In this document: piece by piece, positions 8,677 to 29,359 of the stretch | Numbering within the stretch: position 1 is the stretch's first letter | Layout of the letters: each line of letters begins with the position of its first letter | Source of the DNA: an uncultured Clostridia bacterium | GTDB lineage: Bacteria; Bacillota; Clostridia; TANB77; CAG-508 | Length of the DNA stretch: 55,270 bases | Assembly: GCA_947631145.1 (NCBI GenBank) | Contig: CANRKF010000002.1 | Coordinates: forward strand, 1 to 55,270 | Direction of reading: 5' to 3' | Made by a program: the position numbers and the translations under genes | The notes under the pieces: generated by a model | What the model saw: the letters and a program-made list of their open reading frames with translations, nothing else | Databases searched by the model: none | Told to the model about the DNA's origin: nothing

Positions 8677-8709
8677 AAAAATTCCAGTGAGAAATCGCTG
8701 GAATTTTTG
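8677..8709 (+). terminator. Rho-independent terminator
   Basis: AAAAATTCCAG tgagaaatcg CTGGAATTTTT. Confidence 0.65.
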
Positions 8710-9271: not shown

Positions 9272-9420
9272 AATTTCAGGAAGCTAAAAAATGTCTAAAA
9301 ATAATTAAAAAATAAGTTAAAAATATCTTAATAATAAGCTGAGAATATCTTAATAATAGCTAAAAATAGTTTGAAAAATAGCTTAAATAATAGTAATTTA
9401 GGCAAACTTTTAGAAAAAAC
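9272..9420. repeat. Degenerate ~20-bp AT-rich tandem repeats in the gatC-gatA spacer
   Basis: aagctaaaaaatgtctaaaaataat / aagctgagaatatcttaataat / agctaaaaatagtttgaaaaat / agcttaaataatag. Confidence 0.55.
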
Positions 9421-9437
9421 AAGAAAGGAAGGTCATA

Positions 9438-10910
9438 ATGGATATTACAAAATTAACTGTACATGAAATTCAAGAAAAGCTAAAATCAAAAGAACTTACA
9501 ATAACACAAATAACTAAAGCTTATGTAGAAAATATAGAAAATAAAGAAAAAGATGTACAAGCCTTTATTACACCACTAAAGAAAGAAGCATTAAAACAAG
9601 CTGAAGAAATTCAGAAAAAAGTTGAGAAAAAAGAAATAACAAATTCTTTAGCAGGAATTCCTATAGGAATAAAAGACAATATTTGTACTAAAGGACTAAA
9701 AACAACTTGTGCATCTAAAATGTTGGAAAATTTTGTTGCACCTTATGATGCAACAGTAATGGAAAAAATAAATAACGAAAATATGATAAACTTAGGAAAA
9801 CTTAACATGGACGAATTCGCAATGGGGGGCTCTACAGAATATTCATATTTTCAAAAAACTAGAAATCCATGGGATTTAAATAGAGTACCGGGAGGATCTT
9901 CAGGAGGAAGTGCTGCAGCAGTTGCAGCCAATATGGTACCTTGGGCGCTTGGCTCAGATACAGGAGGATCAATTCGTCAGCCAGCATCATTTTGTGGAGT
10001 AGTAGGGCTAAAGCCAACCTATGGCTTAGTATCTAGATATGGGCTAGTAGCATTTGCATCATCGTTAGATCAAATAGGTCCAATTACAAAAGACGTACAA
10101 GATTCAGCAATATTATTAAATGTAATAGCAGGACATGACGAAAAAGATACAACATCTGTAAAAAAAGAAAAAATAGATTATACAAAAGCATTAAAAAATG
10201 ATGTTAAAGGACTAAAAATAGGCATACCAAAAGAATATTTTGGAGAAGGTATTAATGCCGAAGTAAAGCAAAGTTTAGAAGAAGCAATAGAAACTTATAA
10301 AAAACTTGGAGCAACAGTAGAAGAATTCTCATTAAACATTGCAGATTATGCCCTAGCTACTTATTACATTATAGCTTGTGCAGAAGCAAGTTCAAATTTA
10401 GGAAGATTTGATGGAATTCGTTATGGATACAGAGCAGAAAATTATGAAAATTTAAAAGAGCTTTATCGTAACTCTAGAAGTGAAGGCTTTGGACCAGAAG
10501 TAAAAAGAAGAATAATATTAGGTACTTATGTACTTTCTTCAGGATACTATGATGCTTATTATAAAAAAGCACAGCAAGTAAGAACCTTAGTAAAAGAAGA
10601 ATTTGATAAAGCATTTGAAAAATATGATGTACTTTTAACACCAACTGCACCAACCGTTGCATTTGAAATAGGTACAAGATCAAATAATCCATTAGAAATG
10701 TATTTAGCAGATATTTGCACAGTTTCTGTTAATATTGCAGGTTTACCAGCAATTTCTATACCTTGTGGCATAGATAGTCAGGGTATGCCAATAGGAATGC
10801 AGTTAATAGGAAATAAGTTCCAAGAAGAAACTATTTTAAATTCTGCATATACTTATGAGCAAAATTGTCGCGTTAGGGACGTTTCTAAAAGCGACAAAAT
10901 GTCGCACTAG
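9438..10910 (+). CDS. gatA: Asp/Glu-tRNA amidotransferase subunit A
   Basis: Amidase signature [12 protein letters not shown]. The last ~13 codons ([14 protein letters not shown]) and the stop codon are supplied by the GC-rich repeat element. Confidence 0.93.
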
Positions 10911-11014
10911 TGCCACATCTTAAAGGACATATGTCCCAAAGGCGACAAAGTGTCGCGTAAAGAAACGTCCCCGAGGCGACAAAGTGTCGCATAAAGAAAC
11001 GTCCCCAACGCGAC
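10867..11014. repeat. GC-rich composite palindromic element inserted at the gatA/gatB junction (copy 1; copy 2 at 35202-35259)
   Basis: GTCGC(10867) GGGACGTTTCT(10876) GCGAC(10891) GTCGC(10901), then GGACATATGTCC(10925). Two inverted units follow: GCGAC-aaagt-GTCGC-n4-AGAAACGTCCC (10942-10971, 10976-11005) plus GCGAC(11010). Confidence 0.85.
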
Positions 11015-15191: not shown

Positions 15192-15263
15192 AAATTAAAA
15201 GAATTTAATTATAAATATATTTTATTTAGATGAAAGATTACAAGTTCCTTCAGCATATTTTGA

Positions 15264-15527
15264 ACTTATAATTACAACTATATAAACACACTAAAAAAAT
15301 ATTATACGGAAAAAGAGCATGTTGCTAAAATGTACCCAGAAATTATAAAAGATTTTGAAAAATGGCTAAAAATGTATTGGAACGGCGAAAGACATGAAAT
15401 TTACAAAAATAAAAATATTTTTAATATGGAAAATGAAAAAGATTTTTCTCAAGCAATTATATACTATATATCTGGTATGACTGATAACTATGCAATAGAT
15501 ATGTATAATAAAATAATAAGTTTTTAA
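15264..15527 (+). pseudogene. 3' remnant of a dGTPase-like HD-domain triphosphohydrolase gene
   Basis: Only the C-terminal ~85 codons are open (in-frame stop at 15261). The tail IYYISGMTDNYAIDMYNKI matches the conserved (D/Y)YI(S/A)GMTD-YA end of dGTPase family proteins. No N-terminal HD region is present. Confidence 0.55.
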
Positions 15528-15728: not shown

Positions 15729-16934
15729 ATGTATGAAAGAGAAGTTAAAGAAAGAATAAAAAAAATCAATGATACATTTAGAGTATTAGTAGTAACAGGA
15801 CCAAGACAAGTTGGAAAAACTACTTTACTTGAAAGTGTAATGCCAAAAAATATGATAAAAGTTTCGTTAGATGATGAAGTTTTGCGAAAAGAAGCAAAGG
15901 AAAATCCAAAAATATTTTTAGATTCATATCCTACGCCACTTTTTATTGATGAAGTACAATATGCTCCGGAGTTATTTCCATATATAAAGATGAAGGTAGA
16001 TAAAGATAAAACAAGAGGTCAATATTGGCTATCAGGCTCTCAATTATTTGACCTTATGAAAAATGTTACAGAATCACTTGCAGGTAGAGCAGGAATAGTT
16101 AAAATGAATAGCTTTACTTATAGTGAAATTGTGAGAAATACTGAAAAAGAAGTATTTGATCCAGATAACCTAAAACAACATGAATATATAAATGTAAATG
16201 AAATATTTGAAAGAATTTTTAATGGAGGAATGCCAGAGTTATATGATATAGAAGATATGGACCGAAATGATTTTTATTATTCGTACATAAATACCTATAT
16301 AGAAAAAGACATTAAGAAAATAAAAAATATAGGTAATGTAGAAGCATTTAAAAAATTTATGAGAGATGTAGCTATAAGAACTGGTACTACGTTAAATTAT
16401 TCTGATATTGCAAACGATGTGGGCGTTTCAGTAAATACAATTAAAGACTGGTTCTCAATATTAGTAAACACAGGACTTGTATATTTATTAGAACCATATT
16501 CGTCAAATAGAATAAAAAGGCTTACTCATATGCCTAAAATAATATTTATGGATTTAGGCTTAGCGTGTTATTTAGCTAATTGGGAAAGTGCTAAAGCATT
16601 GCAATTAAGCGATTTATCGGGGCATTTTTTTGAATCATATGTGATTTCTGAACTTATAAAAACTTATGATAATAAAGGAATACGTTTGGATATATCACAT
16701 TTTAGAAATAAAGAAACAGAAGAAATTGATTTAATTATATTTAAAAACAATACATTATATCCATTAGAAATAAAGAAAACAGCAAATCCAAGAAAAGATA
16801 TGATGAAAAACTTTAAGTATCTTGAAAAAACAAATATGAAAATAGGGCAAGGTGGAATTATTTGTTTATATGATAAGTTAATGAAATTAGATGAAAATAA
16901 TTATATTATACCAGTTTCTAGTGTAATAAAATAA
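15729..16934 (+). CDS. AAA+ ATPase of the COG1373 type (AAA_14 N-domain plus DUF4143-like C-domain)
   Basis: Walker A VVTGPRQVGKTTLL, Walker B LFIDEVQY, and LAGRA motif typical of this family. Confidence 0.8.
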   Translation: MYEREVKERIKKINDTFRVLVVTGPRQVGKTTLLESVMPKNMIKVSLDDEVLRKEAKENPKIFLDSYPTPLFIDEVQYAPELFPYIKMKVDKDKTRGQYWLSGSQLFDLMKNVTESLAGRAGIVKMNSFTYSEIVRNTEKEVFDPDNLKQHEYINVNEIFERIFNGGMPELYDIEDMDRNDFYYSYINTYIEKDIKKIKNIGNVEAFKKFMRDVAIRTGTTLNYSDIANDVGVSVNTIKDWFSILVNTGLVYLLEPYSSNRIKRLTHMPKIIFMDLGLACYLANWESAKALQLSDLSGHFFESYVISELIKTYDNKGIRLDISHFRNKETEEIDLIIFKNNTLYPLEIKKTANPRKDMMKNFKYLEKTNMKIGQGGIICLYDKLMKLDENNYIIPVSSVIK

Positions 16935-16985
16935 AATTAAAATATAAATTAAATAGTAATAATAGTAGAAAAAGAGGATATAAAG

Positions 16986-18056
16986 ATGGATGAAAAAAGA
17001 TGTATATTATGTAATAAACCATATAATTATAAATATGTAATGTTTGGAAGAAGCTGTTTAGATAACCTATATGATTTATTGGGATTTTCTAAATCACCAA
17101 GAATAATTTGGAATAAAGAATTATACTTATGTACAAGAATAGCTTGGAAAAATCATAAGTTTTTTCTTAATAAAAAGAAAAAATATGCATTAGCACAAAA
17201 ATATATAGCTTTAACTTATCTAAATACGATGAATTATGAAGCACTAGAAGATATAAAAGAAAAAATTTTAAATGATATAAAAAATATTAAAACATTTTCG
17301 AAAAATATAATAGAGACAATTTCTTTTTCATTAAATGAAGTATATAAATTGGTTAACTATGTACATAAATTTAATGAAATTTTAGAAGAAATAAAAGAAT
17401 TTAATTGGGAAGAAGCAGATGAAGAGATTGCAGAAAAATTCATAAAAAACATGAGCTTCATTTTTGATTTAACCAAAAAGACAAATCCAATTTCATATGC
17501 AGTATTTTATTCAATGCAATATATATTTTGGCAAGTTGTAGTTGTAGGAGGAATATTAGCTAATATGAAATTGTCTGCTAGATTATTATCTAATTCATTA
17601 TCCATATTTGGACAGCAACCACAGGATTTAGTAATAGACGATGATGAAATAACGAAATTAATAATAGAAAATAAAAGCTTTAAAGAAAAAATAGATCAGT
17701 TAATAAAAAAATATGGACAAGATAGAGAAGATTTTATTGTAAATAATGAGGCACCAAAGGAAGATATTTTAATTAGATTTAATGGAGGAGATTTGTTATA
17801 TGCACTACATGATGCTACAATGCTTGTTAATGCCAAAAAAGACCAAGACAACAAATGGAAATTTGAAATAGAGATAAATGATATTTATGATTTTACAGAT
17901 TTCAAAGATTTAAAGGAATATGCAGATGCAGAAGAAAAGATCAGAGATATATTTTCAAGTACATTAAATAATTTGGGAGTTGTATCAAGTGAATATGGAG
18001 TTATCCAAAAATTTAACTTAAAAATTAAATTTGAAACAAAAGAAGGAGAATTTTAA
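16986..18056 (+). CDS. Hypothetical protein with an N-terminal Cys pair motif and a central hydrophobic segment
   Basis: 356-aa ORF with GAGGA RBS, CILCN...GRSC near the N-terminus, and VVVVGGILANM as a hydrophobic stretch. No family recognised. Confidence 0.6.
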   Translation: MDEKRCILCNKPYNYKYVMFGRSCLDNLYDLLGFSKSPRIIWNKELYLCTRIAWKNHKFFLNKKKKYALAQKYIALTYLNTMNYEALEDIKEKILNDIKNIKTFSKNIIETISFSLNEVYKLVNYVHKFNEILEEIKEFNWEEADEEIAEKFIKNMSFIFDLTKKTNPISYAVFYSMQYIFWQVVVVGGILANMKLSARLLSNSLSIFGQQPQDLVIDDDEITKLIIENKSFKEKIDQLIKKYGQDREDFIVNNEAPKEDILIRFNGGDLLYALHDATMLVNAKKDQDNKWKFEIEINDIYDFTDFKDLKEYADAEEKIRDIFSSTLNNLGVVSSEYGVIQKFNLKIKFETKEGEF

Positions 18057-18077
18057 ATTTTATAGGAGATGTTCTTA

Positions 18078-18893
18078 TTGAAAAAAGAAAAGCTAAAAAC
18101 AATTGCATTAGTTATAGCTATAATTATTATATGGTCATTAATTATATATATTTTTATATTAAAATATTTAAAAATGGATGATGATTACAAAAAATTTGGA
18201 CTAGACATTGAGTATCATGACGTAAAATATTGTACCATATTTGAAGATGATATATTTGAAAAATACAAAGTATATAAAATAAGCAATAGTAGCATAAAAG
18301 AGTTGGAAAAACAATTAGAAAATAGTAAGTTATGGAGTAGAAAAAAATATTATGAATATGTAATGAATGAATTTTATGATATTAAAGAAAATGATAACAC
18401 AATTCCAATAGATAGAGAGGATATATATTATTATGAAAATGGATATGCAATATTTGATGTAAAAAATGCAAAACTATATTATCTTGAAAGTAATCCTTAT
18501 AAACATCATAAAGATTACAGTGAAATTTTAGGAGTAAAAACAAAAAACTATGAAGCAAGAGAAATATATAGTGTAAGAGGTGGTCCGCAAAATGATGGTA
18601 CGGATTATTATACATACCAATTTACAGAAGAACAAGGAAAAGAGATAATTAATACATTAGAGAAAAGTCCAAAATGGAATAAAAGTAGATTAGAAGATGA
18701 TAAACTAGATGATTTTGAATATAATAAAGAAATACTTTCAATAGAAAATGGATATTATCACTATGAAAAAGTATGTAGAACAAGTGATGAAAACAAAAAA
18801 CATAATTTTACAGATGAAGAAGCAACAGGTTGGGAAATAGGTGTTTATGATGTTGATAAAAATATTTTATATTATTATTGGACAAGTTATTAA
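18078..18893 (+). CDS. Hypothetical membrane-anchored protein
   Basis: N-terminal TM segment TIALVIAIIIIWSLIIYIFIL and a recurring ENGY..(Y/F) motif. AGGAG abuts ATG 18069, so in-frame TTG 18078 is the likelier start. Confidence 0.55.
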   Translation: MKKEKLKTIALVIAIIIIWSLIIYIFILKYLKMDDDYKKFGLDIEYHDVKYCTIFEDDIFEKYKVYKISNSSIKELEKQLENSKLWSRKKYYEYVMNEFYDIKENDNTIPIDREDIYYYENGYAIFDVKNAKLYYLESNPYKHHKDYSEILGVKTKNYEAREIYSVRGGPQNDGTDYYTYQFTEEQGKEIINTLEKSPKWNKSRLEDDKLDDFEYNKEILSIENGYYHYEKVCRTSDENKKHNFTDEEATGWEIGVYDVDKNILYYYWTSY

Positions 18894-18960
18894 TGCAATA
18901 AAGATAAATATTTACAGTTAAATCAGTTGAACTCTACTAATAAGTGAAAGCTGTAAAATC

Positions 18961-18992
18961 AAAAAGGTAAAGAATCTGCTCTTTACCTTTTA
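18961..18992 (+). terminator. Rho-independent terminator ending island unit A
   Basis: AAAAAGGTAAAGA atctgc TCTTTACCTTTT. Confidence 0.7.
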
Positions 18993-19014
18993 AAACATTT
19001 TATGACCAAACTTA

Positions 19015-19043
19015 TTGAAAAGAAATAAGAAAAATGATATATT
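19015..19043 (+). promoter_or_regulatory. Extended -10 promoter for island unit B
   Basis: TTGAAA (19015-19020), 17 nt spacer, TGaTATATT (19035-19043). Confidence 0.45.
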
Positions 19044-19079
19044 TTATAAAACAATATTAGAAAAAAGGAAGTGTATTTA

Positions 19080-20291
19080 TTGCAAATAAAAATTAATAGA
19101 GGAACTAATCAAATAGGAGGTTGTATTACTGAAATTGCATCAAGTAAAGGTACAAAAATAATTATAGATATAGGTACCAATTTACCAGATTCAGAAGGTA
19201 GAAAAAAGCCAGAAATTGAACTAGAAGGCTTGACGAAAGGTTCCCATAATTATAAAGCAATATTTATTACTCATTATCATGGAGATCATATAGGATTATA
19301 TAATAAGGTATTGCCTGACATACCAATTTATATTGGAGAAATTTCAAAAGAAATTTATAATATAGTACAAACTAGGCTTAGTAAAGCAAATCTTGTGTCA
19401 AAAGAAAATCTAGAGAAAATATCTAAATTTAAAACTTTTAATATTAAGAATAAAATCATAATTGATGATATAAAAATAGCTCCTATAGCAGTTGACCATT
19501 CAGCTTTTGATAGTTATATGTTTTTAATAGAAACAGATGGAAAAAAGGTTTTACATACAGGAGATTTTAGAACACACGGACAAAGAGGTAAGGCAGTTTT
19601 AGAAGCTATAAAAAAATATGTTGGAAAAATAGATTGCTTAATTTGTGAAGGAACTACCTTAACCAGAGATAATAGTAAAATATTAACAGAATTCGAGTTA
19701 CAAAAAGATGCAGAGAAAATTTTTAGTGAGAATAAATATAATTTTGTATTGTGTAGCAGTACCAATATAGATAGGATAGCAGCTATTCACAAAGCAGCAT
19801 TAAAAAATCACAAAATGTTTATTTGTGATGACTATCAATGTGATCTTTTAGAATATATTAATACAATTTCAAGAAGTAACTTATATAAATTTAATGATAC
19901 TAATAACATTAAAGCCACCAAAGTCTATCGTTACGCACCAAATATGTTAGAAAAGATGAAGCAATATGGCTTCGTAATGTTAGTTAGGCCAAATGCAAAA
20001 TTTGCAAAATTTTTAGAAATGTTTGAAAATAATACTTTTATATATTCTGAATGGAAAGGATATTTAACAGGAACAAATGAAGATTATAAAAGAATTCAAG
20101 ATTTTGTTCCAAAAGATAATATATATTTACACACTAGTGGACATGCAACACCAGAAGCAATTAAAGAAGTTATTAATATTACTAATCCAAAATATGTAAT
20201 ACCTATACATACAGAAAATAAAGAAAAAATAAAAGAACTAACTGATAAAGCCGTTATATTAGAAGATGGAGAAGAATTTATTTTAAAATAA
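19080..20291 (+). CDS. RNase J-like beta-CASP metallo-beta-lactamase-fold nuclease, lacking the RNase J C-terminal domain
   Basis: HYHGDHIG (HxHxDH) and HTSGHATPEAIKEVINITNPKYVIPIHTE (beta-CASP motif C region as in RNase J). Listed GTG 19071 overlaps the AAGGAAG RBS; in-frame TTG 19080 preferred. Confidence 0.7.
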   Translation: MQIKINRGTNQIGGCITEIASSKGTKIIIDIGTNLPDSEGRKKPEIELEGLTKGSHNYKAIFITHYHGDHIGLYNKVLPDIPIYIGEISKEIYNIVQTRLSKANLVSKENLEKISKFKTFNIKNKIIIDDIKIAPIAVDHSAFDSYMFLIETDGKKVLHTGDFRTHGQRGKAVLEAIKKYVGKIDCLICEGTTLTRDNSKILTEFELQKDAEKIFSENKYNFVLCSSTNIDRIAAIHKAALKNHKMFICDDYQCDLLEYINTISRSNLYKFNDTNNIKATKVYRYAPNMLEKMKQYGFVMLVRPNAKFAKFLEMFENNTFIYSEWKGYLTGTNEDYKRIQDFVPKDNIYLHTSGHATPEAIKEVINITNPKYVIPIHTENKEKIKELTDKAVILEDGEEFILK

Positions 20292-20304
20292 GGAGGAAAT
20301 GAAT

Positions 20305-21318
20305 ATGGAAGAAAAGGAATATCAAAAAATTAGTGATATACCACATTCTCAAGATGTTGAAATAGAGGAGAATAAAGATACTGTAAAGATAGTAATAAAA
20401 AAACCTACCGAAAATATGCAAACAGATATGGCAAATTTTGAGGCTTTGGCTATTATGTATAAGTGCATAAAGCCTAGTATAAATGTTATTATAGAATATA
20501 CTAAATATGAAAAATGGGATGCTCGTTTTGGAGATTTATCTAAAGAAAGTAGTATTTATTCAAGATTTTTATATAGATTAATTAAATTTAAAGAAGCTTT
20601 TCCGAATTGGGTAAAAATATCTAATAATAATATAGCTGAAATTAACTTTTTTGAGCAATTATTAAATGAAGCATTTATCAATAAAAAACTTAGCAATAAT
20701 ATTCCTGAATCTAAAGCAGGATTTAGTCTAAAAAAAGGAGAAGAACATCAAATAGAAAACAAATTAGCTAGAACAGAAAAGGGAAATAATTATTTAAAAA
20801 GCCTATATCATACTTTATATCCAAATAGTGAATTATTATTTGCATATAATCAATTACCTAATGGATTATTCAATGTAGGGCATGACGAAAGAGCAATAGA
20901 ATCCAAACGTGTATTTACAACTGGAATGTATGACATATGGGGAATTGATACACTAGGAAATCTTTGTATATTTGAATTAAAAAGGGATCAAGGAAATAGC
21001 CATTTAGGAGTTATATCAGAATTATTTTTCTATGCTATATATGCTAATGAAATACTATGCAACAAAGATTTAATACATATAAAAAAGAACAGAAATCATA
21101 GAGGATATGAAAAATTATATGACTATGTTCAAAGTGGAAAAATAAATGGAATTAATGCTATATTTCTTTTAGGGCAAGATATATACCCTGCTATAAAAGA
21201 GAGGCAAAAAGAATTAAAAATGCTTTTAGATACGAATAAATTTGGAATTAATTTTGATTTTTTAATTTATGATATTAATGAAGTAGAAAAAATAAATTAT
21301 AATGAAATTGAAAATTAA
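20305..21318 (+). CDS. Hypothetical protein with a PD-(D/E)xK nuclease-like core
   Basis: EEHQIENKLA ... YDIWGIDTLGNLCIFELKRD (D-x9-ExK). AGGAGG 20291-20296 favours ATG 20305 over 20299. Confidence 0.55.
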   Translation: MEEKEYQKISDIPHSQDVEIEENKDTVKIVIKKPTENMQTDMANFEALAIMYKCIKPSINVIIEYTKYEKWDARFGDLSKESSIYSRFLYRLIKFKEAFPNWVKISNNNIAEINFFEQLLNEAFINKKLSNNIPESKAGFSLKKGEEHQIENKLARTEKGNNYLKSLYHTLYPNSELLFAYNQLPNGLFNVGHDERAIESKRVFTTGMYDIWGIDTLGNLCIFELKRDQGNSHLGVISELFFYAIYANEILCNKDLIHIKKNRNHRGYEKLYDYVQSGKINGINAIFLLGQDIYPAIKERQKELKMLLDTNKFGINFDFLIYDINEVEKINYNEIEN

Positions 21319-21352
21319 ATTTCTTATTACAATTATTAACAAGGAGAAAATA

Positions 21353-21871
21353 ATGAAAAAAACAATAACTTATGAACAAATCGAGCAACGATTAAAAAAT
21401 AAACCTCAAGAACAATGGACAAAAGATGATGTATTTGATAGATATGTTGGGTACGGAAGTCCAGAAGAAATAGAAAATACAGAAGTGCAAAAGCTTTTTA
21501 TAAAGCATGATTTATATGATGAACTAATTAATTTAGTAAATAATGTTATTATAGATAAAGAAGTTGTAGAAAAGATACTTAACAGCAATATATTTGAAAA
21601 AAAAGAATTAAAAAAAGTAAGAGGAAAAATAAAAGATATAAAATTTTTTGAAATAGAAGATGATAAAATTGATGAATTAAAACAGATTTCAATTATATTT
21701 GAGGAAGAAAATAATGCAGAGCAATTATTAATAAAAGATTTTTGCCTTACATCAGAAATTGATAAGTATTTACAAGATAAAAATAAGTATAAAAATAAAA
21801 TGATAATTACTATAATAGAGAAAGATAAAAATGAATTAATCTTAAAATGCTTTTGTAATTTAATAGATTAA
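21353..21871 (+). CDS. Hypothetical protein (172 aa)
   Basis: AAGGAG RBS before ATG 21353. The listed start 21302 overlaps the upstream gene. Confidence 0.55.
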   Translation: MKKTITYEQIEQRLKNKPQEQWTKDDVFDRYVGYGSPEEIENTEVQKLFIKHDLYDELINLVNNVIIDKEVVEKILNSNIFEKKELKKVRGKIKDIKFFEIEDDKIDELKQISIIFEEENNAEQLLIKDFCLTSEIDKYLQDKNKYKNKMIITIIEKDKNELILKCFCNLID

Positions 21872-21977: not shown

Positions 21978-23462
21978 ATGAATAAAGTTAATCTATCAAA
22001 ATCGAAATATTGTAAAGCAAAACAATGTAATAAAATTTTGTGGCTAGACAAAAATAAACCAGAAGAAGCAATAGATATAGGAAATGAATCAATTTTAGAA
22101 AATGGAACAAGGGTAGGAGAATTAGCAAGAAGTTATTTTGGAAAATACACAAATATAGAATTTAATACAGATTTATCTAAAATGATTTCTGATACAGAAA
22201 AAGAACTAAAAAATGTTTCAAATATAATAACAGAAGCATCATTCAATTTCAATAATAATTTCTGTAGTGTTGATATATTAAAAAATGACATTGATGGAAT
22301 AGAAATATACGAAGTAAAAAGTTCTACAAGTATTCATGATATATATTTAGAAGATGTTTCATATCAATATTATGTGCTGCATAACTTAGGTTTTAATATA
22401 AAAAGAGTAAATATAATGTATATCAATAGCGAATATGTAAGGAACGGCGAATTAGAATTAGATAAACTTTTTAATATTAAAGATGTTACTGAAATAGCTA
22501 TTTCAAAGCAAAATGAAATACAGGAAAAAATAGAAGAAATAAATGAATATATGCAAAAATATGACAATAAAGAAAATGAACCAGAAAAAAAGGTTGGTAT
22601 GAATTGTTTTGACCCTTATGAATGTGCATACTGGAATTATTGTACTAAAGAATTACCAGAAAATAATATTTTTAAAATTAGATTAATGCATAAAGATAAA
22701 AAGTTTAAATTATACAATGAAGGTAAAATTAGTTTTGAAGATGTATTATATGAAGATATAAATGAAAAATATTTAGAACAAATAGACTTTGAACTAAATG
22801 AAAAGGAAACAAAAATTGAAAAAGAAAAGATACGAGATTTTTTAGACACTCTTTCATATCCATTGTACTTCTTGGATTTTGAAACTTTTCAGCAAGCAAT
22901 TCCCGAATATGATGGTGTAAGTCCTTATATTCAAATACCTTTTCAATACTCACTACATTATATTGAAAAAGAAGGTGGAAAACTAAAACATAAAGAATTT
23001 CTTGCTGAAGCTGGATTAGATCCTAGAAGAACTTTGGCAGAAAGATTAGTCCAAGATATTCCAAAAAATGTATGTGTTACTGCTTACAATATGAGTTTTG
23101 AGAAAAGTGTAATAAAGAAATTAGCTGAAACTTATCCAGATTTAAGTGAACATCTATTAAATATAAGAGAAAACATAAAAGATTTAATGATTCCATTTAA
23201 AGAAAGGTATTATTATTGCAAAGCAATGCAAGGCTCATATTCAATAAAATATGTATTACCTGCATTATTTCCAAATGACCCAGAACTTGATTATCATAAT
23301 TTGCCAGTGGTACATAATGGTGGAGAAGCAAGTTTTGCTTATAGTGATTTGGTAAATCATACAAAAGAGGAACAGGAAAAAATAAGAAATGGATTATTAG
23401 TTTATTGTGGCTTAGATACTTTAGCAATGGTTAAAGTATGGGAGAAATTAAAAGAAGTTTAG
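21978..23462 (+). CDS. DUF2779-type protein: Cas4/RecB-like PD-(D/E)xK nuclease with Cys cluster, plus a C-terminal DEDDy-like exonuclease
   Basis: N-terminus LSKSKYCKAKQCNKILWL. DGIEIYEVKS (D..ExK). C-x6-C-x5-C (CFDPYECAYWNYC). FLDFETF, YNMSFEKS and YCGLDTLA resemble Exo I/II/III motifs. Confidence 0.75.
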   Translation: MNKVNLSKSKYCKAKQCNKILWLDKNKPEEAIDIGNESILENGTRVGELARSYFGKYTNIEFNTDLSKMISDTEKELKNVSNIITEASFNFNNNFCSVDILKNDIDGIEIYEVKSSTSIHDIYLEDVSYQYYVLHNLGFNIKRVNIMYINSEYVRNGELELDKLFNIKDVTEIAISKQNEIQEKIEEINEYMQKYDNKENEPEKKVGMNCFDPYECAYWNYCTKELPENNIFKIRLMHKDKKFKLYNEGKISFEDVLYEDINEKYLEQIDFELNEKETKIEKEKIRDFLDTLSYPLYFLDFETFQQAIPEYDGVSPYIQIPFQYSLHYIEKEGGKLKHKEFLAEAGLDPRRTLAERLVQDIPKNVCVTAYNMSFEKSVIKKLAETYPDLSEHLLNIRENIKDLMIPFKERYYYCKAMQGSYSIKYVLPALFPNDPELDYHNLPVVHNGGEASFAYSDLVNHTKEEQEKIRNGLLVYCGLDTLAMVKVWEKLKEV

Positions 23463-23488: not shown

Positions 23489-24481
23489 ATGGAACTATAC
23501 GAAAAAAATGGAAATATATTATACATATTAAATGTATTAAAAAAATATAGTGATGAAGAACATAAGTTATCTATATCAGAACTAAAAGAAAAAATAAATG
23601 AAATATATGATGAAGATATAGATCCAAGAACTATAAGAAGAAATATCAATTTACTTAAAGAAAAATTTGGCTATGATATAAGTACATATAATGACAATAA
23701 AATTGGATATTATATTAGCAATGATCCAGAAACAGATTTTGAACCGGGAGAAATCAGAGCAATTATAGACACTTTTAGTTATTCAACATTTATAGAAGAT
23801 AGGATAGCAAAAGGAATAATAAAAAAGTGTAAAAATCTTCAAAACATATATGAAAATGAAAAAGTAAAAAATTATAAAGTATATTCTCAAAAAGGTAAAA
23901 CTAGCAATGTTGAAGTAATAAAAAATATAGAAGACATTTCAAATAGTATTACCAATAAACATAAAGTTAAATTTGAATATTGGAAATATTATATAAATGG
24001 AGATAAAATAGAAAAGAAAATAGTAAGTGAACCTATTGTTTCTCCTTATGCAATTTTATATGATAATCAACAGTTTTATATGCTTGGAATAAAAGATGGC
24101 AATGATAAATTTTTTCATTATAGATTAGATAGAATAAGAAATTTACAAGAAACAAATGAAAAAATAACTATAAAGAAAACAGAAAAGGAAATAGAAGAAT
24201 ATACAGATGCGTCAGTTGAAATATTTAGTGGTGATAAAATAAAAATAGAGGCTAAATGCAATGAAGTGCTACTAGGAGAAGTTATAGAAAAGTTTGGAAA
24301 AAACGTAAAAATAAGTCCAATAAATAATAAAGAATTTAAAATGAGTTTGCATGCAAATCCACAAGGCTTCAAACTATGGGCAATGAGAAATTTAGATGTA
24401 GTAACAGTAACCAGTCCTCAAAGTTTTATAAATGAAATACAATTATTGTTAGAAGATGCTGTAAAAAGATATAAAAAATAA
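23489..24481 (+). CDS. WYL-domain transcriptional regulator (N-terminal wHTH plus WYL)
   Basis: ILYILNVLKKYSDEEHKLSISELKEKI (HTH), and PYAILYDNQQFYMLG...FFHYRLDRIRNL (WYL core). Confidence 0.85.
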   Translation: MELYEKNGNILYILNVLKKYSDEEHKLSISELKEKINEIYDEDIDPRTIRRNINLLKEKFGYDISTYNDNKIGYYISNDPETDFEPGEIRAIIDTFSYSTFIEDRIAKGIIKKCKNLQNIYENEKVKNYKVYSQKGKTSNVEVIKNIEDISNSITNKHKVKFEYWKYYINGDKIEKKIVSEPIVSPYAILYDNQQFYMLGIKDGNDKFFHYRLDRIRNLQETNEKITIKKTEKEIEEYTDASVEIFSGDKIKIEAKCNEVLLGEVIEKFGKNVKISPINNKEFKMSLHANPQGFKLWAMRNLDVVTVTSPQSFINEIQLLLEDAVKRYKK

Positions 24482-24527: not shown

Positions 24528-24598
24528 CCTTGCTCGGCTAAGTGTTTTATAAATTTAGATAATACCTTGCTTGACCAAGAACATTGCAGTTTTAAAAT
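24528..24598 (+). promoter_or_regulatory. Two 15-bp GC-richer direct repeats; the second overlaps the -35 of a putative promoter for island unit C
   Basis: CCTTGCTCGGCTAAG (24528-24542) and CCTTGCTTGACCAAG (24565-24579). TTGACC 24571-24576, 16 nt spacer, TAAAAT 24593-24598. Confidence 0.45.
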
Positions 24599-24640: not shown

Positions 24641-25474
24641 ATGAAAATCTATTTTTTACAGGTAATGTGCCATTTCAATAAAGAAAATCATTATCATTAT
24701 GAAAATGTATATTCAAAAAAACATTTAGCAATTCAACAAGGACGTATAATGTTAGAAAAAATGTTTAGAGAAGAATATGAAAGTATGTTTGAACAAAATG
24801 AAGCTCCTAAAATAAGTCGTAAAAAATTGTTTGAATTAGATGCACTTTATGATTTTAAGATAACTGAATATAATCCAGAATATGTAGATAATTTAAATGA
24901 TTTAAATAAATTACCAATCATAGAAAAATATGATATATATGATTTATATTGTGCTGATTTAAAACCTGCAAAAATACAGTATTTTTATGATTATAACGGA
25001 AAAGAAAATTATATATCTGGTGTATACATTTTCAATTATAAAGGAAAAAGAAAAGAAAAAACTATAATGGTGCCTTATGAAGATTATAAAGATCCCTTGG
25101 CAGGCACTAAATTCAAAAAAGGTGATATAGTTAAAATAAAGGATACTAACTATCCTTTTTCTGAGATGCTTCATGTTGTAACAGAAGTACCACACAAAAA
25201 GGAAAATCAAAAATTTTTTAATAATTATTATAAGGTAATTACTAATCATAATAGTTTTGATGAAGGATGTTATGCTGATGCTTTTGATGAAAGAGATTTA
25301 GAACTATACACAGGAAAGCTACCAAAAGATTCTCCAATTATATTTTTAAGTAAATATTTTAAAGGAGAAATAAAATTAAAAAATATAAGCTGGATGGATA
25401 TAGAATGTGGTAATATAACTTTAAATGAGAATAAAAGTTTTAGAGACATTCCTGAAATAATGAAACAATTATAA
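24641..25474 (+). CDS. Hypothetical protein; its C-terminal half shows motif-level similarity to the C-termini of the next two gene products
   Basis: 277 aa with AGGGGGA RBS. Shared motifs: F(K/N)KGDI(V/L), D..D(L/F)E(L/Y)Y.G, (I/F)L(K/S)..S.(Y/F)(L/F)KG(E/K)(I/L). Confidence 0.6.
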   Translation: MKIYFLQVMCHFNKENHYHYENVYSKKHLAIQQGRIMLEKMFREEYESMFEQNEAPKISRKKLFELDALYDFKITEYNPEYVDNLNDLNKLPIIEKYDIYDLYCADLKPAKIQYFYDYNGKENYISGVYIFNYKGKRKEKTIMVPYEDYKDPLAGTKFKKGDIVKIKDTNYPFSEMLHVVTEVPHKKENQKFFNNYYKVITNHNSFDEGCYADAFDERDLELYTGKLPKDSPIIFLSKYFKGEIKLKNISWMDIECGNITLNENKSFRDIPEIMKQL

Positions 25475-25491
25475 ATAGAAGGAGGTAAACT

Positions 25492-27876
25492 ATGAAAACC
25501 GGTTCAAAATATATAAAAGAAAAATGTTATAGCAAGGCTAAAAAAATATATGGAGAAAATTTACCTCATGATGTAGAAGAAAGATTAAAACTTGAACTTG
25601 ATTCTATAATAAAGAATAATTTTGAAATAAAATATTTAGTAACATCAGAAGTAGCAAAAAGATCAAAAGAAATGGGATATTTATCATATACAAGAGGTAG
25701 TGTAGGAAATTCTTTTGTAGCATTTTTACTAGAAATTACAGACTTTAATCCTATAAAATATAATCTACCTTTTGAGATGTTTGCAGGAATAAAATATGAT
25801 AAGGAACCTGACATAGAAATATATATTTCAGAAGAAATAATAGATAAAATACTTGAAGAAATAAAAGATGAAGAAAAAGATGAAGAAAAAGATGAAGAAA
25901 AAGATAAAGAAAAAGATGAAGAAAAAGATGAAAAAATAAAAGATATAGAAATAAAAGATGTAAAAGGAGAAATTAAAATTCATAAATCAAATTTACCTAC
26001 ATTTTTGAAAAAATTACAAGATGAAACACAAATTAACCCACAAGATATTGATTTAGCTGACAAAGATACTTTAAAATTATTTGCAGAAGCAGATACCAGA
26101 GGAATATTTGATTTTACATCGGATTTTATGATCAATATGCTAAAACAAGCAAAAGTCAGAAATTTTAATGATTTAGTTTGTGTATCAGCTTTAAGTCATG
26201 GAACTGGAACATGGACTAATAACGCAGAATATATGATTAAAAAATTTGACATATCTATAGATATGCTAGTTTCTAACAGAGCAGATGTTATGAACTATTT
26301 AATGGAAAAAAATATTGATAAAGAAAAAGCTTATGAAATAACTGAATTTATTAAAAAAGGAAGAGCCTATATGGCAAATGATATATTTAGCTATAGTGTT
26401 TTACAAGAAGAATCTCAAACAAAGTGGGAAGAATATAAAAAAATATTAGAAGACCACAATGTTCCACAATACTTCATAGAATCTTGTGAGCAAATAAAGT
26501 ATTTATTTCCAAAAGCTCATTCTATAGTTGCAGTAGAAAATTCTTTTAGAATTGCTTGGTATAAAGTACATTATCCAGAAGCATTTTATAAAACATATTT
26601 TGAAACAAATAAAACAATAAATATTAATTGCTATGCTACACAAAAAGAAGTAGAAAGAAAATTAAAAAGACTTTATGATGAACAATTAGGAATTTGGAAA
26701 AAGGGATATACAGAAGAAAAAAAGCTAAAAGACCAAATCTGTGAATTTGAAGTATTGCTTGAAATGTTTAATAGAGGAATAAAAAAAGACACAAAAAGAA
26801 AAGAAGATATTTATGATCTAATAAATTCAAAAGCAATAGGAGATTATTGTAGAGAAATAGGATATAAATTCAATACTGAGGAACTTGCTGTTTTAGTGTA
26901 TAGAAACAAAAAAATGGATATATTTGAAAAAATTTCTAAATATCAAGATTTGATAGATAATTATCCAGATATGGAAGTGGTAGAAAGGTTTAATTGTGAA
27001 CATTATGACAGTGTAAAAGAAATGATAAAAAATGAAATAAATAGAATTACAAAATTATATCAAGATTTCATAGATGAAGATGATTGTATATATGGATGGA
27101 GCGATTGGAAGAAAAACGGTTATTCTAATTATGAAATTGATAATGCAAAGAGAACATACAAAGAAATAGAAAATGAAATAAAGAATTTAATAAATGAGTA
27201 TAATGACCTTGATTATTTTAGTATTACAAAAAAATATTTTGATGGACCAGAAGTCATTTTTAGAGATAAAGAGAAAAAGATAGTTGTAAATTGTAAAGTT
27301 ATAAAAAAGCTTCCTAAGATTATAGAAATAATGGAAATTGGCGAAGCAATGTCAGATTTAGAAGGAATTTTTGTAAATATACCTGTTCCATTTAAGAAAG
27401 GTGATATTTTAATTAGTGGTAATAATACTCCTTATAATAATTTAGTAAATGATGAAAAAGACTGCATATTTGTTTTAGATAGCTTAACTATTTGGAATAA
27501 AAGAATAAATGATGAAGATTTTATCAGAAATTTGGACATGACTGATATGATGGGAAATGGATATTATTTAGTTGATGGTAGCGAAAACTTTGTTTTAGAT
27601 CATATTTTTGATTATGATTCTTTCGAGTATTTTGAAGAAGAGTTAGAAGGAACAAATCGCATTTTAAAGTTAATAAGTAGCTTTTTAAAAGGAAAACTTA
27701 ATAACTTAGAATTATTTATAAAAGCATATGAATCATTTAAATCAGATTATGAAGGAAAAATGCCAGACATTTTTATAGATGAAGATTTAAAATTGGCAGG
27801 TTTTAGTGATTTGGAAGTTTCAAAAATAAAAAGACAGCATGAAAAAATATATGCGAGCGATGAAAAAAAGATATAA
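25492..27876 (+). CDS. Degenerate PolC (DNA polymerase III alpha, Gram-positive type) fragment fused to a ~355-aa domain of unknown function
   Basis: IYGENLP..VEERLKLELDSII, GYLSYTRGSVGNSFVAFLLEITDFNP, LPFEMFAGIKYDKEPDIEI, SALSHGTGTW and IKYLFPKAHS track PolC palm/fingers motifs. The zinc-finger insert and the core between PDID and LDILGHDD are missing, replaced by a (KDEE)n tract. Residues ~438-794 are paralogous to ORF 27988. Confidence 0.7.
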   Translation: MKTGSKYIKEKCYSKAKKIYGENLPHDVEERLKLELDSIIKNNFEIKYLVTSEVAKRSKEMGYLSYTRGSVGNSFVAFLLEITDFNPIKYNLPFEMFAGIKYDKEPDIEIYISEEIIDKILEEIKDEEKDEEKDEEKDKEKDEEKDEKIKDIEIKDVKGEIKIHKSNLPTFLKKLQDETQINPQDIDLADKDTLKLFAEADTRGIFDFTSDFMINMLKQAKVRNFNDLVCVSALSHGTGTWTNNAEYMIKKFDISIDMLVSNRADVMNYLMEKNIDKEKAYEITEFIKKGRAYMANDIFSYSVLQEESQTKWEEYKKILEDHNVPQYFIESCEQIKYLFPKAHSIVAVENSFRIAWYKVHYPEAFYKTYFETNKTININCYATQKEVERKLKRLYDEQLGIWKKGYTEEKKLKDQICEFEVLLEMFNRGIKKDTKRKEDIYDLINSKAIGDYCREIGYKFNTEELAVLVYRNKKMDIFEKISKYQDLIDNYPDMEVVERFNCEHYDSVKEMIKNEINRITKLYQDFIDEDDCIYGWSDWKKNGYSNYEIDNAKRTYKEIENEIKNLINEYNDLDYFSITKKYFDGPEVIFRDKEKKIVVNCKVIKKLPKIIEIMEIGEAMSDLEGIFVNIPVPFKKGDILISGNNTPYNNLVNDEKDCIFVLDSLTIWNKRINDEDFIRNLDMTDMMGNGYYLVDGSENFVLDHIFDYDSFEYFEEELEGTNRILKLISSFLKGKLNNLELFIKAYESFKSDYEGKMPDIFIDEDLKLAGFSDLEVSKIKRQHEKIYASDEKKI
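25864..25935 (+). repeat. In-frame 12-bp tandem repeat x6 encoding (KDEE)n
   Basis: aaagatgaagaa x3, aaagataaagaa, aaagatgaagaa, aaagatgaaaaa. Confidence 0.9.
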
Positions 27877-27906
27877 TACAAACATACTAAAAGGAATTTT
27901 TGACTA

Positions 27907-27990
27907 TGGTTAAAGTATGTAAGAAATTAAAAGTATGGAAAAAATTGAAAGAAGTTTAAAAAAATAAAAGTAAGGAAAAATAAAAATATG
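27907..27990 (+). repeat. Duplicate of the DUF2779 3' end, spacer and WYL RBS (23427-23491), placed in front of ORF 27988
   Basis: atggttaaagtatg(gg/ta)agaaattaaaag...aagttta(g/a)aaaaataaaagta(g/a)gga(g/a)aaataaaaat. The copy at 27907 also has an internal ~19-bp duplication. Confidence 0.8.
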
Positions 27991-29073
27991 AAAAAAGAAA
28001 GAAAATTAGATGATTATGATTTAATTAACTCTAAAGCAATAAAAAATCACTGTAGAAAAATAAAATATCAATTTAATACAGAAGAACTTGCTGTTTTAGT
28101 ATATAGAAATAAGACAATGAATATAGAAGAAAAAATAGTTAAATATCAAGACTTAATTGATAATTATCCAGATATGGAAGTTATAGAAAGAATAAATTGT
28201 AAGCATTATGATAGTGTAAAGACTTTAATACAAGAAGAAATTAATAGATTAAAAAATTTATTTGAAGCTTTTATAAAAGAAAATGAAAGATGTGCTTATA
28301 CATGGTATGAATATAATAAAACAACCAAAAAAGAAGATACTAGCCCTTATCATATATCAAAAAGTCTAAAAGGAACATATAAAGAAGTATATGAAGATGT
28401 AGCAAGCTATGTGAATGAATATGATGATACAATTTCATTTACTATTATAAAAAAAATTTTTGAAGAAAAAGATAAAATAATTTATGCTAAATACAATGTT
28501 ATAAATAAAAATCCAAAGCTAATAAATATATATGAAGATGAAGAAGGATACTTAGATGAAGGGGATTTAGATATAAATAATATTTTTGTATATATGCCTA
28601 CCCCATTTAATAAAGGCGATATCTTAATTTCTGAAAATCCATCAAGATGCAATTATGGAGATAATGGAGATATATTTGTTTTAGATTATATGTCTACTTG
28701 GAGAGAAAATATAAAGGAGTATTTAGCAAAGGGAAACTCTGATTCGTCAGATATGGTAGGATATGGATATTATTTATATGATGATGGTCCAGATTTTGTA
28801 TTTGATAATAAGTGGGACTATGATAGCTTTGAATATTACGAAGGAAAAATAGAAGGCAATAATAGAATCTTAAAAGCAATTAGTAGTTATTTAAAAGGAG
28901 AAATAGATTTTGAACTTCTAATACATGCTTATGATGTATTTAAAATTGAAAGCATAAACAAAGCCATGCCAGATTTTTATACAGAAGAAGGATTAAAAAA
29001 AGCAGGCTTTACTGATATAGATATTCAAAATGAAAAAAATAATTGGAAAAATATAGATATGAAGGAGGAGTAA
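27988..29073 (+). CDS. Hypothetical protein, stand-alone paralog of the C-terminal domain of the PolC-like fusion
   Basis: YDLINSKAIKNHCRKIKYQFNTEELAVLVYRNK..KYQDLIDNYPDMEVIER.NCKHYDSVK is near-identical in pattern to residues ~440-520 of ORF 25492. Similarity continues to the C-terminus. Confidence 0.7.
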   Translation: MKKERKLDDYDLINSKAIKNHCRKIKYQFNTEELAVLVYRNKTMNIEEKIVKYQDLIDNYPDMEVIERINCKHYDSVKTLIQEEINRLKNLFEAFIKENERCAYTWYEYNKTTKKEDTSPYHISKSLKGTYKEVYEDVASYVNEYDDTISFTIIKKIFEEKDKIIYAKYNVINKNPKLINIYEDEEGYLDEGDLDINNIFVYMPTPFNKGDILISENPSRCNYGDNGDIFVLDYMSTWRENIKEYLAKGNSDSSDMVGYGYYLYDDGPDFVFDNKWDYDSFEYYEGKIEGNNRILKAISSYLKGEIDFELLIHAYDVFKIESINKAMPDFYTEEGLKKAGFTDIDIQNEKNNWKNIDMKEE

Positions 29074-29084
29074 TAGTTTGAAAG

Positions 29085-29286
29085 AAATCAATCTTTCATT
29101 TCTATGTGTGCCTTTGAGCGAAGCAAGAAAGGCATGATTTTTAATTTAAAAAAATCAATCTTTCATATTTCTATGTGTTTGCGCGAAGCAAGAAAGGCAT
29201 GATTTTTAATTTGAAAAAAATCAATCTTCCAATTTTTATGTGTTTGCGCGAAGCAAGAAAAAAATGAAATTTAATTTAATTTGAAA
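29085..29286. repeat. 3 x 66/67-bp tandem repeat just inside the right island end
   Basis: tcaatc units start at 29088, 29155 and 29221. Each carries GCGAAGC. Unit 1 forms TGCCTTT-n12-AAAGGCA followed by a T-run. Confidence 0.85.
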
Positions 29287-29312: not shown

Positions 29313-29359
29313 AAAAAAAGAAACCTACTTAAATATGTATCTAAATAGGTTTCTTTTTT
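29313..29359. terminator. Bidirectional terminator downstream of the SASP gene
   Basis: AAAAAAGAAACCTA ... TAGGTTTCTTTTTT. Confidence 0.7.

Follow-up and report, generated by a model that had tools for sequence, protein, structure and literature searches.

Surveys of the C-family DNA polymerases describe the groups DnaE1-3 and PolC (PMC3919608, PMC12926913), and PolC variants without the exonuclease (Exo) domain are on record from Clostridia and Negativicutes (Timinskas et al. 2014, PMC3919608), in a survey from which fragments without an intact active site were removed. ImuB, of the ImuA-ImuB-DnaE2 mutasome, is mentioned in one of these accounts (PMC12926913). Among immune systems, the integrated decoy is still a hypothesis where bacteria are concerned, having been proposed for bNACHT11 (PMC11702601), and WYL repressors control diverse defence systems (PMC13622015). 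The domain DUF2779 has been read as a Cas4-like nuclease to which a predicted 3'-5' exonuclease is attached (PMC13621843, PMC3985635). Here we describe a locus that lies in a stretch of 55,270 nucleotides (nt) from an uncultured Clostridia bacterium (contig CANRKF010000002.1 of assembly GCA_947631145.1), the whole of which is referred to below as the window, and its central gene, open reading frame (ORF) B, joins a truncated PolC core to an unnamed C-terminal domain, hereafter the C-domain. ORF B is preceded by ORF A and followed by ORF C.

An original prediction, made by a model from the letters alone, had taken ORF B for a gutted and apparently inactive PolC fragment in a WYL-associated island, and had suggested that it might serve as a decoy or as a sensor. 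We compared the locus with 76 related loci, which came from a scan of one genome per species; all 76 are in metagenome-assembled genomes (MAGs) of uncultured gut or rumen Bacillota, mostly labelled Clostridia. Relatives are numbered L001 and so on where loci are meant, and P0014 and so on where representatives of protein clusters are meant.

Results

ORF B contains two pieces of PolC

ORF B follows PolC through the fingers, as the original prediction proposed. Its best match in the Protein Data Bank (PDB) is the PolC of Geobacillus kaustophilus (3F2B; phmmer, E 3.6e-52). Pfam places DNA_pol3_alpha at amino acids (aa) 6-126 (E 3.9e-28), covering only positions 1-122 of the 260 in the profile, and DNA_pol3_finger at aa 170-290 (E 3.1e-20), so that the fingers of a PolC are present. 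NCBIfam ranks its PolC-type models at the top for B (300 bits) and its DnaE models at about 70 bits, and the two PolC-type models stop short of their cutoffs (NF001688 300.5 bits against 873; TIGR01405 274.8 against 1043). An exact-sequence look-up of B returned no record.

Aligned to the 3F2B chain with phmmer, B 6-89 corresponds to PolC 417-500, B 87-115 to PolC 539-567 and B 167-431 to PolC 689-944. The alignment skips the zinc-finger insert (about 38 aa, PolC about 500-539), which had been reported as absent, and it replaces PolC 568-688, the 121 aa that comprise the thumb and the strand of the palm bearing the third catalytic Asp, by 51 aa (B 116-166); the earlier claim of a palm/thumb core swapped for a KDEE-rich stretch is thereby borne out. 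Within this scar a 12-nt repeat, AAAAGATGAAGA, codes for KDEE and runs for 6.2 copies (25863-25936), a run that is missing from the closest relatives of B, for example in L007. The catalytic pair PDIDLNF reads PDIEIYI in B, with D107 and E109 in the aligned columns, and the column of the third catalytic Asp is occupied by K162, both as first read. B begins at the palm and is without PHP, Exo, N-terminal domain, OB and the clamp-binding/HhH region; the four absences that had been claimed (exonuclease, PHP, clamp-binding and HhH parts) are thus borne out. A regular-expression search of B for a QLxLF-like clamp-binding motif found none that is canonical, only QLGIW at residue 398, inside the post-finger helices.

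Since its triad is D107/E109/K162 and the thumb, the second palm half and PHP are missing, B is predicted to be unable to synthesise DNA, and of the features of a functional PolC only the fingers appear to be left. On its sequence, B is a catalytically dead, twice-truncated PolC paralogue. The term pseudo-polymerase, under which it was first described, suits a protein that has lost two catalytic carboxylates out of three, the whole thumb and the second half of the palm. The other possibility that had been raised for B, intact Asp residues in a complete palm, does not apply, as the triad is D/E/K and a palm half is missing.

Catalytic residues were lost repeatedly in relatives under selection

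Long-form relatives of B (1,113-1,339 aa) carry PHP, a complete palm, the thumb and the fingers, followed by the C-domain; they too are without Exo, N-terminal domain and OB. The long form of L021 aligns to 3F2B (E 4.5e-116) in such a way that the catalytic residues of PolC coincide with PDIDLNF and with the Asp of KFDLL, and the Exo insertion is missing. The first metal-binding motif of PHP, HxH in PolC (VELHLHT), reads VELCCHT in the aligned long forms (L008, L021, L025 and others), with a few variants such as VEIGCYT.

In an alignment of the catalytic columns of 33 PolC-type relatives, the triad is intact in L008, L009, L010, L018, L019, L021, L023, L025, L028, L032, L036, L043 and L063. 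It is substituted in other long forms that are otherwise intact, namely L015 (N/V/E), L016 (D/D/E), L031 (D/V/D), L037 (D/Y/N), L039 and L042 (both D/S/N), L040 (D/S/D) and L066 (D/N/D). A short form of the window's type, without PHP and thumb, was found at 8 loci, at 56-78% identity and with no stop codon; the second carboxylate position in this clade is E, V or A, and the first can be E. PHP and thumb were lost independently in L026 and L027 (which read PKINLYF), where the same two pieces, the N-terminal palm half and the fingers, were kept. The finger motif is degenerate in L026, L027 and L032. Catalytic residues were thus lost more than once and independently, with the ORFs staying open, and the gutted state of B is derived, by descent from long forms. 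The cluster representative P0028 has in-frame internal deletions.

Within the short-form clade, pairwise ratios of nonsynonymous to synonymous substitution rates (dN/dS) range from 0.22 to 0.41 in the PolC part of B and from 0.23 to 0.52 in its C-domain. The values are 0.18-0.23 for ORF C and 0.08-0.12 for the adjacent genes for WYL (0.08-0.09), DUF2779 and a metallo-beta-lactamase (MBL) protein, so that B stands at 3-4 times these neighbours. A sliding-window analysis of the corresponding polymorphism ratio (pN/pS) in the same clade gives about 1.0, the neutral value, for the scar, as against 0.22-0.46 for the palm half (0.22 in the region of the GS motif) and 0.35-0.57 for the fingers; constraint within B is strongest in the first helices of the C-domain (0.16-0.25), and the middle of the C-domain evolves fast (0.6-0.8). 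Because an ORF of 794 codons stays open at about 25% GC, the short form is found at 8 loci, dN/dS is below 1 and only the scar is neutral, B is a maintained non-catalytic protein, not a pseudogene, although one that evolves faster than its neighbours. A decaying prophage module without conservation elsewhere, which the original prediction had named as the case that would speak against it, does not describe a gene that is found in 35 of the 76 related loci and is under purifying selection.

An unnamed domain is shared by ORF B, ORF C and many other proteins

The C-terminal part of B (436-794, 359 aa) recurs as ORF C, as had been seen at first reading, with 50% identity (E 8e-99) and 78% identity at the nucleotide level over 289 nt. 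The earlier reader could not name this domain, and it has no significant match in Pfam, NCBIfam, PHROGs or PADLOC; a PDB profile search returned a coiled-coil artefact only. An AlphaFold2 model of ORF C built from 56 homologues is of good quality (predicted local distance difference test score, pLDDT, 86.5; predicted template modelling score, pTM, 0.85), and Foldseek found no fold neighbour for it in the PDB (best E 0.54) or in BFVD (best E 0.05). The domain is acidic, with isoelectric points (pI) of 4.7-4.8 here and a family median of 4.9. Its family comprises 181 close clusters, and its profile matches 1,660 clusters at E<=1e-3 and 1,057 at <=1e-10, counted as 50%-identity representatives; most of these proteins are stand-alone and about 335 aa long. 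Many C-domain proteins (for example L007 6937-9774; P0014, P0023, P0042 and P0044) bear a C-terminal extension of about 170 aa (KIYNMS...KLYEN) without a Pfam match, and B in the window stops exactly at the point where this extension would start.

The domain had been described as triplicated, its third copy lying in ORF A. What recurs in A is a beta-core of about 100-130 aa; the whole domain is not there. BLASTP aligns A and the C-domain over 43 aa (E 0.007), and hhalign aligns A 154-247 with C 203-309 (E 0.0023, probability 12%). The AlphaFold2 model of A (pLDDT 89) has three long strands, five short strands and a helix, and the predicted order of strands and helices in A 111-241 is that of C 148-302, at the hhalign offsets. 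A thus shares a beta-core with the C-domain and does without the N-terminal helical part, a relationship that is weak at the level of sequence and is supported by the models. The family of A (93 clusters) is without a Pfam model, and Foldseek found no fold neighbour of the A model in the PDB (best E 0.023). An A gene is present in 17-18 of the 76 related loci, nearly always alongside a PolC-core gene. The slot just upstream of the PolC-core gene is filled by a stand-alone C-domain gene in short-form loci as against A in long-form loci, an exchange that fits their common beta-core.

The window cassette is a reduced form of a conserved island

A PolC-type piece adjoins or is fused to the C-domain in 35 of the 76 related loci. 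WYL genes are present in 39-40, DUF2779 genes in 22-24 and an AAA+ ATPase (PF00004 with AAA_lid_6), as a separate gene, in 33. The islands also hold truncated paralogues of housekeeping genes: DnaB_C-only proteins in 25 loci, with 6 more that are degenerate, proteins reduced to the FtsZ GTPase domain in 9 and a DnaJ_C fragment in 10. The conserved order of the cassette is (MBL) - DUF2779 - variable nuclease or dGTPase - WYL - DnaB-like - A - PolC core::C-domain - stand-alone C-domain - AAA+. It is seen as a complete operon in L077, which lies among housekeeping genes on a 539-kb contig and reads DnaJ_C fragment - DUF2779 - two unknown genes - HD/dGTPase - WYL - full DnaB (438 aa) - A - Macro - PolC core::C-domain (1,122 aa) - AAA+ ATPase. 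The DnaB of L077 keeps its Walker motifs intact, and the gene in its variable slot matches the dGTPase model of PADLOC (E 5e-51). Neighbours in the related islands include PDDEXK_4, Macro and ADP-ribosylglycohydrolase-like genes.

In the window the order DUF2779 - WYL - A - B - C matches the neighbours of PolC core::C-domain relatives, and the cassette of B lies directly downstream of the WYL regulator, in keeping with the WYL association proposed for the island. A tblastn search of the window island with representatives of the DnaB-like and AAA+ clusters (c2 and c3) found no copy of either, the sole match being the AAA domain of ClpC; FtsZ-like and DnaJ_C genes are missing as well. In the window the cassette has been reduced to WYL - A - B - C and has a mosaic make-up: at the DNA level its A is closest to that of L025 (89%), its B to those of L001 and L003 (88-94%) and its C to the gene upstream of B in L001 (91%). 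In L002 the C-domain of B is kept (86%) and the whole PolC part is deleted.

Several related loci have arrangements of their own. In L052 (about 7400-11000) a row of truncated paralogues stands downstream of WYL, comprising an FtsZ GTPase domain (about 200 aa), DnaJ_C (about 110 aa) and a DnaB_C-only protein (about 250 aa); L038 and L041 share this row, which is followed by a C-domain gene and, in L052 and L038, by an AAA+ gene too. A paralogue of ribosomal protein S6 (Pfam E 4.9e-28) is located near a stand-alone C-domain gene in L044, L046, L047 and L048, with no WYL gene nearby; the one in L046 (12673-12957) stands among small unknown ORFs. L068 (12748-15912) encodes a fusion of 1,055 aa that joins DnaB_C, PHP, palm and fingers without a C-domain. 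The palm of this fusion has the PolC zinc finger and an intact PDIDLNF, and two C-domain genes and another PolC-like piece lie upstream of it.

The C-domain is fused to a range of partners: DnaB_C (P0018), the DnaB N-terminal domain (P0045, P0046, P0048, P0053), PolC fingers (P0029, P0030), DnaA AAA+ (P0244), DnaA domain IV (P0231), FtsK with DnaB_C (P0255), the N-terminal half of A (P0015) and the cREC receiver domain (P0283, P0286, P0339). PolC cores without a C-domain are, among the matches listed, 745-762 aa long with PHP and 435-445 aa long without it, and have a separate C-domain gene nearby. Among distant members, DUF2779 adjoins a C-domain::cREC_REC gene in L082 and L083, and in L079 a PolC-like protein with Exo (985 aa) and RtcB adjoin a C-domain::DnaA-AAA+ gene. 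The distant member P0363 lies at 9001-9999 of L084, a 231-kb contig, among small unannotated ORFs of the same strand; with a TROVE/Ro-like gene and a NUMOD3 motif around it, this contig looks like a large phage or plasmid. P0363 occurs on many contigs of 50 kb to 1 Mb.

Features of the window around the cassette

The features of the cassette and its immediate context are collected in Table 1.

Table 1. Positions of the cassette genes, their parts and nearby elements within the window.
Feature	Position	Strand	Description
DUF2779 protein (context, island partner)	21978-23462	+	Pfam DUF2779 E 5.6e-47
WYL-domain regulator (context, upstream)	23489-24481	+	Pfam WYL E 3.9e-9; PADLOC WYL E 3e-19
Candidate promoter-like hexamers, WYL-to-A spacer	24571-24598	+	TTGACC, 16-nt spacer, TAAAAT; 10/12 consensus matches
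ORF A	24641-25474	+	277 aa; member of an unnamed family (about 290 aa) that precedes the PolC-core gene in long-form loci
Beta-barrel and helix core common to A and the C-domain (A residues 154-247)	25100-25381	+	Placed by hhalign against C 203-309
ORF B	25492-27876	+	794 aa; truncated PolC core fused to the C-domain
N-terminal half of PolC palm (B aa 1-116)	25492-25839	+	RGSVGNS motif; remnant of catalytic pair D107, E109 (25810-25818)
Deletion scar (B aa 117-166)	25840-25989	+	Replaces thumb and second palm half; KDEE run; K162 (25975-25977)
PolC fingers and following helices (B aa 167-435)	25990-26796	+	LSHGTGTW, KYLFPKAHS and AWYKVHYP kept
C-domain copy 1 (B aa 436-794)	26797-27876	+	Where PolC has the clamp-binding/HhH region
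ORF C	27988-29073	+	361 aa; stand-alone C-domain, pI 4.8
22-nt inverted repeat, terminator-like on both strands	29314-29359	.	91% complementary, flanked by A and T runs

ORF B starts 17 nt past the stop of ORF A and has an AGGAGG ribosome-binding site 8 nt upstream, and 111 nt separate it from ORF C. Most of that spacer consists of an 18-nt tandem repeat (27912-27996; 4.8 copies, 71% matches) that enters the start of ORF C. A consensus scan found promoter-like sites in the region in numbers not above those in shuffled sequence, so the pair of hexamers between WYL and A is a candidate only. The inverted repeat beyond ORF C ends both the cassette and a convergent SASP gene. Directly past the ORF C stop lies a 65-nt tandem repeat in three copies (29081-29279; 86% matches), each unit of which has a GCCTTTC...GAAAGGC hairpin followed by a T-run, resembling a terminator. 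This repeat matches nothing in Rfam, its folding is no more favourable than that of shuffled sequence (z = -1.8), and none of 78 related loci contains it. The window has a GC content of about 25%, and searches of it for tRNA genes and against Rfam gave no match.

The upstream part of the island (15729-21871) encodes an AAA_14/DUF4143 ATPase, an RNase J-like MBL/beta-CASP protein that is kept in 7-8 related loci, and ORFs 16986, 18069, 20299 and 21302, to which no function could be assigned. At 15201-15527 we found the 3' remnant of an HD/dGTPase gene (108 aa with 65% identity to c20 of the related islands; tblastn E 3e-35), in which the longest ORF left is 65 aa. The same gene stands between DUF2779 and WYL in relatives, and the remnant is a sign that genes have decayed where the island begins on the left.

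The island sits in the chromosome, with housekeeping genes on either side. No integrase, phage structural gene or other mobile hallmark was found among the scanned window ORFs or the annotated recurrent neighbour families of the 76 loci. With tblastn, A, C and P0363 had no match in 50,697 phage records and ORF C none in 72,556 plasmid records, and two IMG/VR scans, which covered P0363 as well, were negative. A phage or plasmid origin was considered and set aside: the matches of B in phage records (30-37% identity) span its PolC-derived part only, and these unannotated and mostly short contigs are taken to be host PolC. An intein or homing element in polC or dnaB, which the DnaB and PolC pieces beside the C-domain had suggested, was likewise rejected, there being no Hint, LAGLIDADG or HNH match in Pfam and extein-like sequence on one side only, for B ends within the C-domain and has polymerase sequence on one side alone. 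In the window ORFs and related-locus proteins that were scanned, Pfam found no domains of an ImuA-ImuB-DnaE2 mutasome, which pairs a Y-family pseudo-polymerase with DnaE2 and a RecA-like partner.

Discussion

The reading that we favour, tentatively and with rather less than even confidence, is that B is a non-catalytic replisome look-alike in an anti-invader island. Selection would have kept B as a binding module in which the N-terminal half of the PolC palm and the fingers are tethered to the C-domain. The cassette would be a system against phages or mobile elements, and its replisome-derived pieces would imitate the host replisome towards invader proteins that bind or recruit it, serving as baits or as competitors. 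The C-domain and the beta-core of A would form a common module that couples these pieces to one another and to the rest of the island, which is the DUF2779 nuclease and, in relatives, the AAA+ ATPase, and the WYL protein would control expression. We infer all four elements of this picture (the non-catalytic binding role, the anti-invader function, the coupling by the C-domain and the control by WYL), counting in their favour that catalytic residues are dispensable across the family, that fragments of replication and segregation proteins recur in fusion with the C-domain, that related islands hold truncated FtsZ, DnaJ_C and DnaB_C paralogues, that B evolves faster than its neighbours, that the island is a recombination mosaic and that no mobile hallmark was found in the scope given above. 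The context, moreover, is defence-like in that it combines a WYL gene with PADLOC matches, the Cas4-like DUF2779, the PADLOC dGTPase and neighbours of the PDDEXK_4, Macro and ADP-ribosylglycohydrolase-like kinds.

A number of observations weigh against a look-alike of this sort. All three Asp are kept in 13-14 long forms, about half of them, so that the PolC core::C-domain family probably includes real polymerases; most DnaB_C paralogues keep the Walker A and B motifs, and the ancestral cassette may work enzymatically, as helicase and polymerase, instead of by decoys. Relaxed constraint could by itself explain the dN/dS of about 0.3 in B, against about 0.1 in its neighbours. Deletions between neighbouring genes of the island could have produced the fusions as a side effect, since the order DnaB_C - A - PolC - C-domain predicts exactly such fusions. 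The window copy is missing the DnaB-like and AAA+ partners, A, B and C have no PADLOC match, the C-domain shows no recognisable effector, sensor or signalling fold or signature, and the relatives are known only from MAGs. Distant C-domain genes, finally, lie beside RNA-repair genes (RtcB, cREC, TROVE), which is a poor fit to a replisome bait, or in mobile-element-like contexts (the NikA-like one of L080, and L084), and the cREC/RtcB connection links the family to RNA-repair or cyclic-phosphate systems that our explanation does not cover.

The locus might also be an integrated-decoy immune system, which we regard as possible but doubtful. Truncated or dead copies of the hubs that phages hijack (PolC, DnaB, DnaA, FtsK, FtsZ and DnaJ) would be provided with a common adaptor, the C-domain or the A beta-core, which would signal the presence of invader proteins or neutralise them and pass the response on to DUF2779 or AAA+ under WYL control. 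If the long forms are given more weight, an accessory replication or repair module comes into view, in which a WYL-controlled PolC-core polymerase, exonuclease-less and hence error-prone, would act with the DnaB-like helicase, AAA+ and DUF2779 in damage tolerance or break repair, and B of the window would be an ImuB-like non-catalytic scaffold or a reduced leftover. PafBC- and DriD-type WYL regulators do control DNA-damage responses, the island is chromosomal among housekeeping genes, long forms have PHP, full palm, thumb and fingers with the triad intact in the 13 loci named above, and the operon of L077 also codes for a DnaB of full length (438 aa) whose Walker motifs are intact. We nevertheless consider this module unlikely, because every short form, and many a long form that is otherwise whole, has a substituted triad, no member has the OB, clamp-binding and HhH elements that processive synthesis needs, the truncated FtsZ and DnaJ_C and the dGTPase and Macro genes do not fit, and rapid shuffling and raised dN/dS are atypical for repair genes. 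Another view, that B is a decaying remnant of the replication module of a mobile element or of a duplicated host segment, with a functionless PolC part and selection on the C-domain only, finds support in the stepwise loss from long form to short form to the C-domain alone (L002), in the in-frame deletions of P0028, the neutral scar filled by a KDEE microsatellite, the dGTPase remnant at 15201-15527 and the mosaic structure. It is nonetheless improbable, since the PolC pieces that flank the scar have pN/pS of 0.22-0.57 and not 1, the short form persists at 8 loci down to 56% identity without a stop codon in AT-rich DNA, the same two pieces were kept in the independent truncation of L026 and L027, and the scanned window ORFs and annotated recurrent neighbour families hold no mobile hallmark.

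There are two further proposals. Under one, which appears quite unlikely, a WYL repressor released in infection would unleash dominant-negative replisome poisons, truncated PolC, DnaB and FtsZ that would insert into or cap the replisome and divisome of the host, or the replisome of the phage, and so arrest the cell or the replication of the invader, as abortive-infection effectors. The genes sit under a WYL regulator, and the parts that serve oligomerisation or partner binding are kept where catalytic parts are lost (DnaB_C-only, the FtsZ GTPase domain, PolC fingers without the triad), but the nucleotide-binding motifs survive in most of the DnaB_C and FtsZ-like copies, nothing resembling an antitoxin partner is apparent, the proposal gives the ubiquitous C-domain no role and purifying selection is only moderate. 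The other proposal is that B is a nucleotide sensor, whose GS motif, first carboxylate and finger motifs would bind dNTPs or analogues and report to the C-domain on changes of the pool, for example through phage takeover or the dGTPase. RGSVGNS, D107, LSHGT and FPKAH are kept and constrained, and a dGTPase gene is a recurrent island neighbour; the short-form clade, however, has E, V or A at the second carboxylate and can have E at the first, the finger motif is degenerate in L026, L027 and L032, and other fusion partners of the C-domain (the DnaB N-terminal domain, DnaA domain IV) do not bind nucleotides. The sensor strikes us as very improbable, the least credible of these explanations.

Were B and its relatives indeed baits for invader proteins, they would be the first concrete bacterial case of host replisome domains built into an immune locus, they would make the integrated-decoy idea directly testable in bacteria, and they would point to PolC, DnaB, DnaA and FtsZ as proteins often targeted by phages in gut Firmicutes. 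If the repair module were the correct explanation, the cassette would be a PolC-derived counterpart of the DnaE2 mutasome in gut Clostridia, with a bearing on the mutation supply of the gut microbiome. Whatever its function, the locus brings to light a large family (about 1,660 clusters at 50% identity) without Pfam model or fold neighbour, a second unnamed family in A, and an unrecognised class of accessory C-family polymerase paralogues that repeatedly lose their active site.

The original prediction knew of no described system of this kind, and we can say the same of the sources that we covered. PADLOC-DB v2 has 0 families for A, B and C and gives only WYL and weak Cas4 matches for their neighbours, the long form and its partner genes are without a PADLOC match except for the dGTPase, and the literature, as covered outside the field of cREC/RtcB conflict systems, yielded no paper that connects PolC with an anti-phage decoy, or WYL with pol III in a defence island. 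Within these databases and this literature, the cassette and both component families are undescribed. With the PolC of 3F2B, B has in common the motifs RGSVG(N/S)S, LSHGT, KYxFPKAH and WYK, but its 359-aa C-terminal domain is absent from any PolC. The Exo-less PolC variants (PMC3919608) are likewise of PolC type without the Exo insertion and come from the same bacterial classes; they differ in that they are described as having an intact polymerase active site and were analysed among other PolC polymerases, and the PolC core::C-domain family falls outside that survey through its removal of fragments without such a site.

In the WYL-regulated defence operons of BrxR/CapW type, as here (PADLOC WYL E 3e-19), a WYL-domain helix-turn-helix protein stands beside variable cargo; the difference lies in the cargo, as A, B and C have no PADLOC model, and the regulation is a predicted one in the present case. 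ImuB has a clamp-binding motif and is a member of a defined DNA-damage regulon. It is a catalytically dead polymerase of the Y family, whereas B is of the C family and is accompanied by no ImuA or DnaE2 partner in the scanned proteins, but the two may be alike as polymerase-derived pseudoenzymes that act as a non-catalytic partner or scaffold beside active relatives. From the integrated-decoy receptors, plant RRS1-WRKY and bacterial bNACHT11, B differs in that it carries no STAND or NACHT NTPase, and the AAA+ of its relatives is a classical PF00004 with AAA_lid_6 encoded by a separate gene; what B would share with them is the fusion of a piece of a pathogen-targeted host protein to an immune module.

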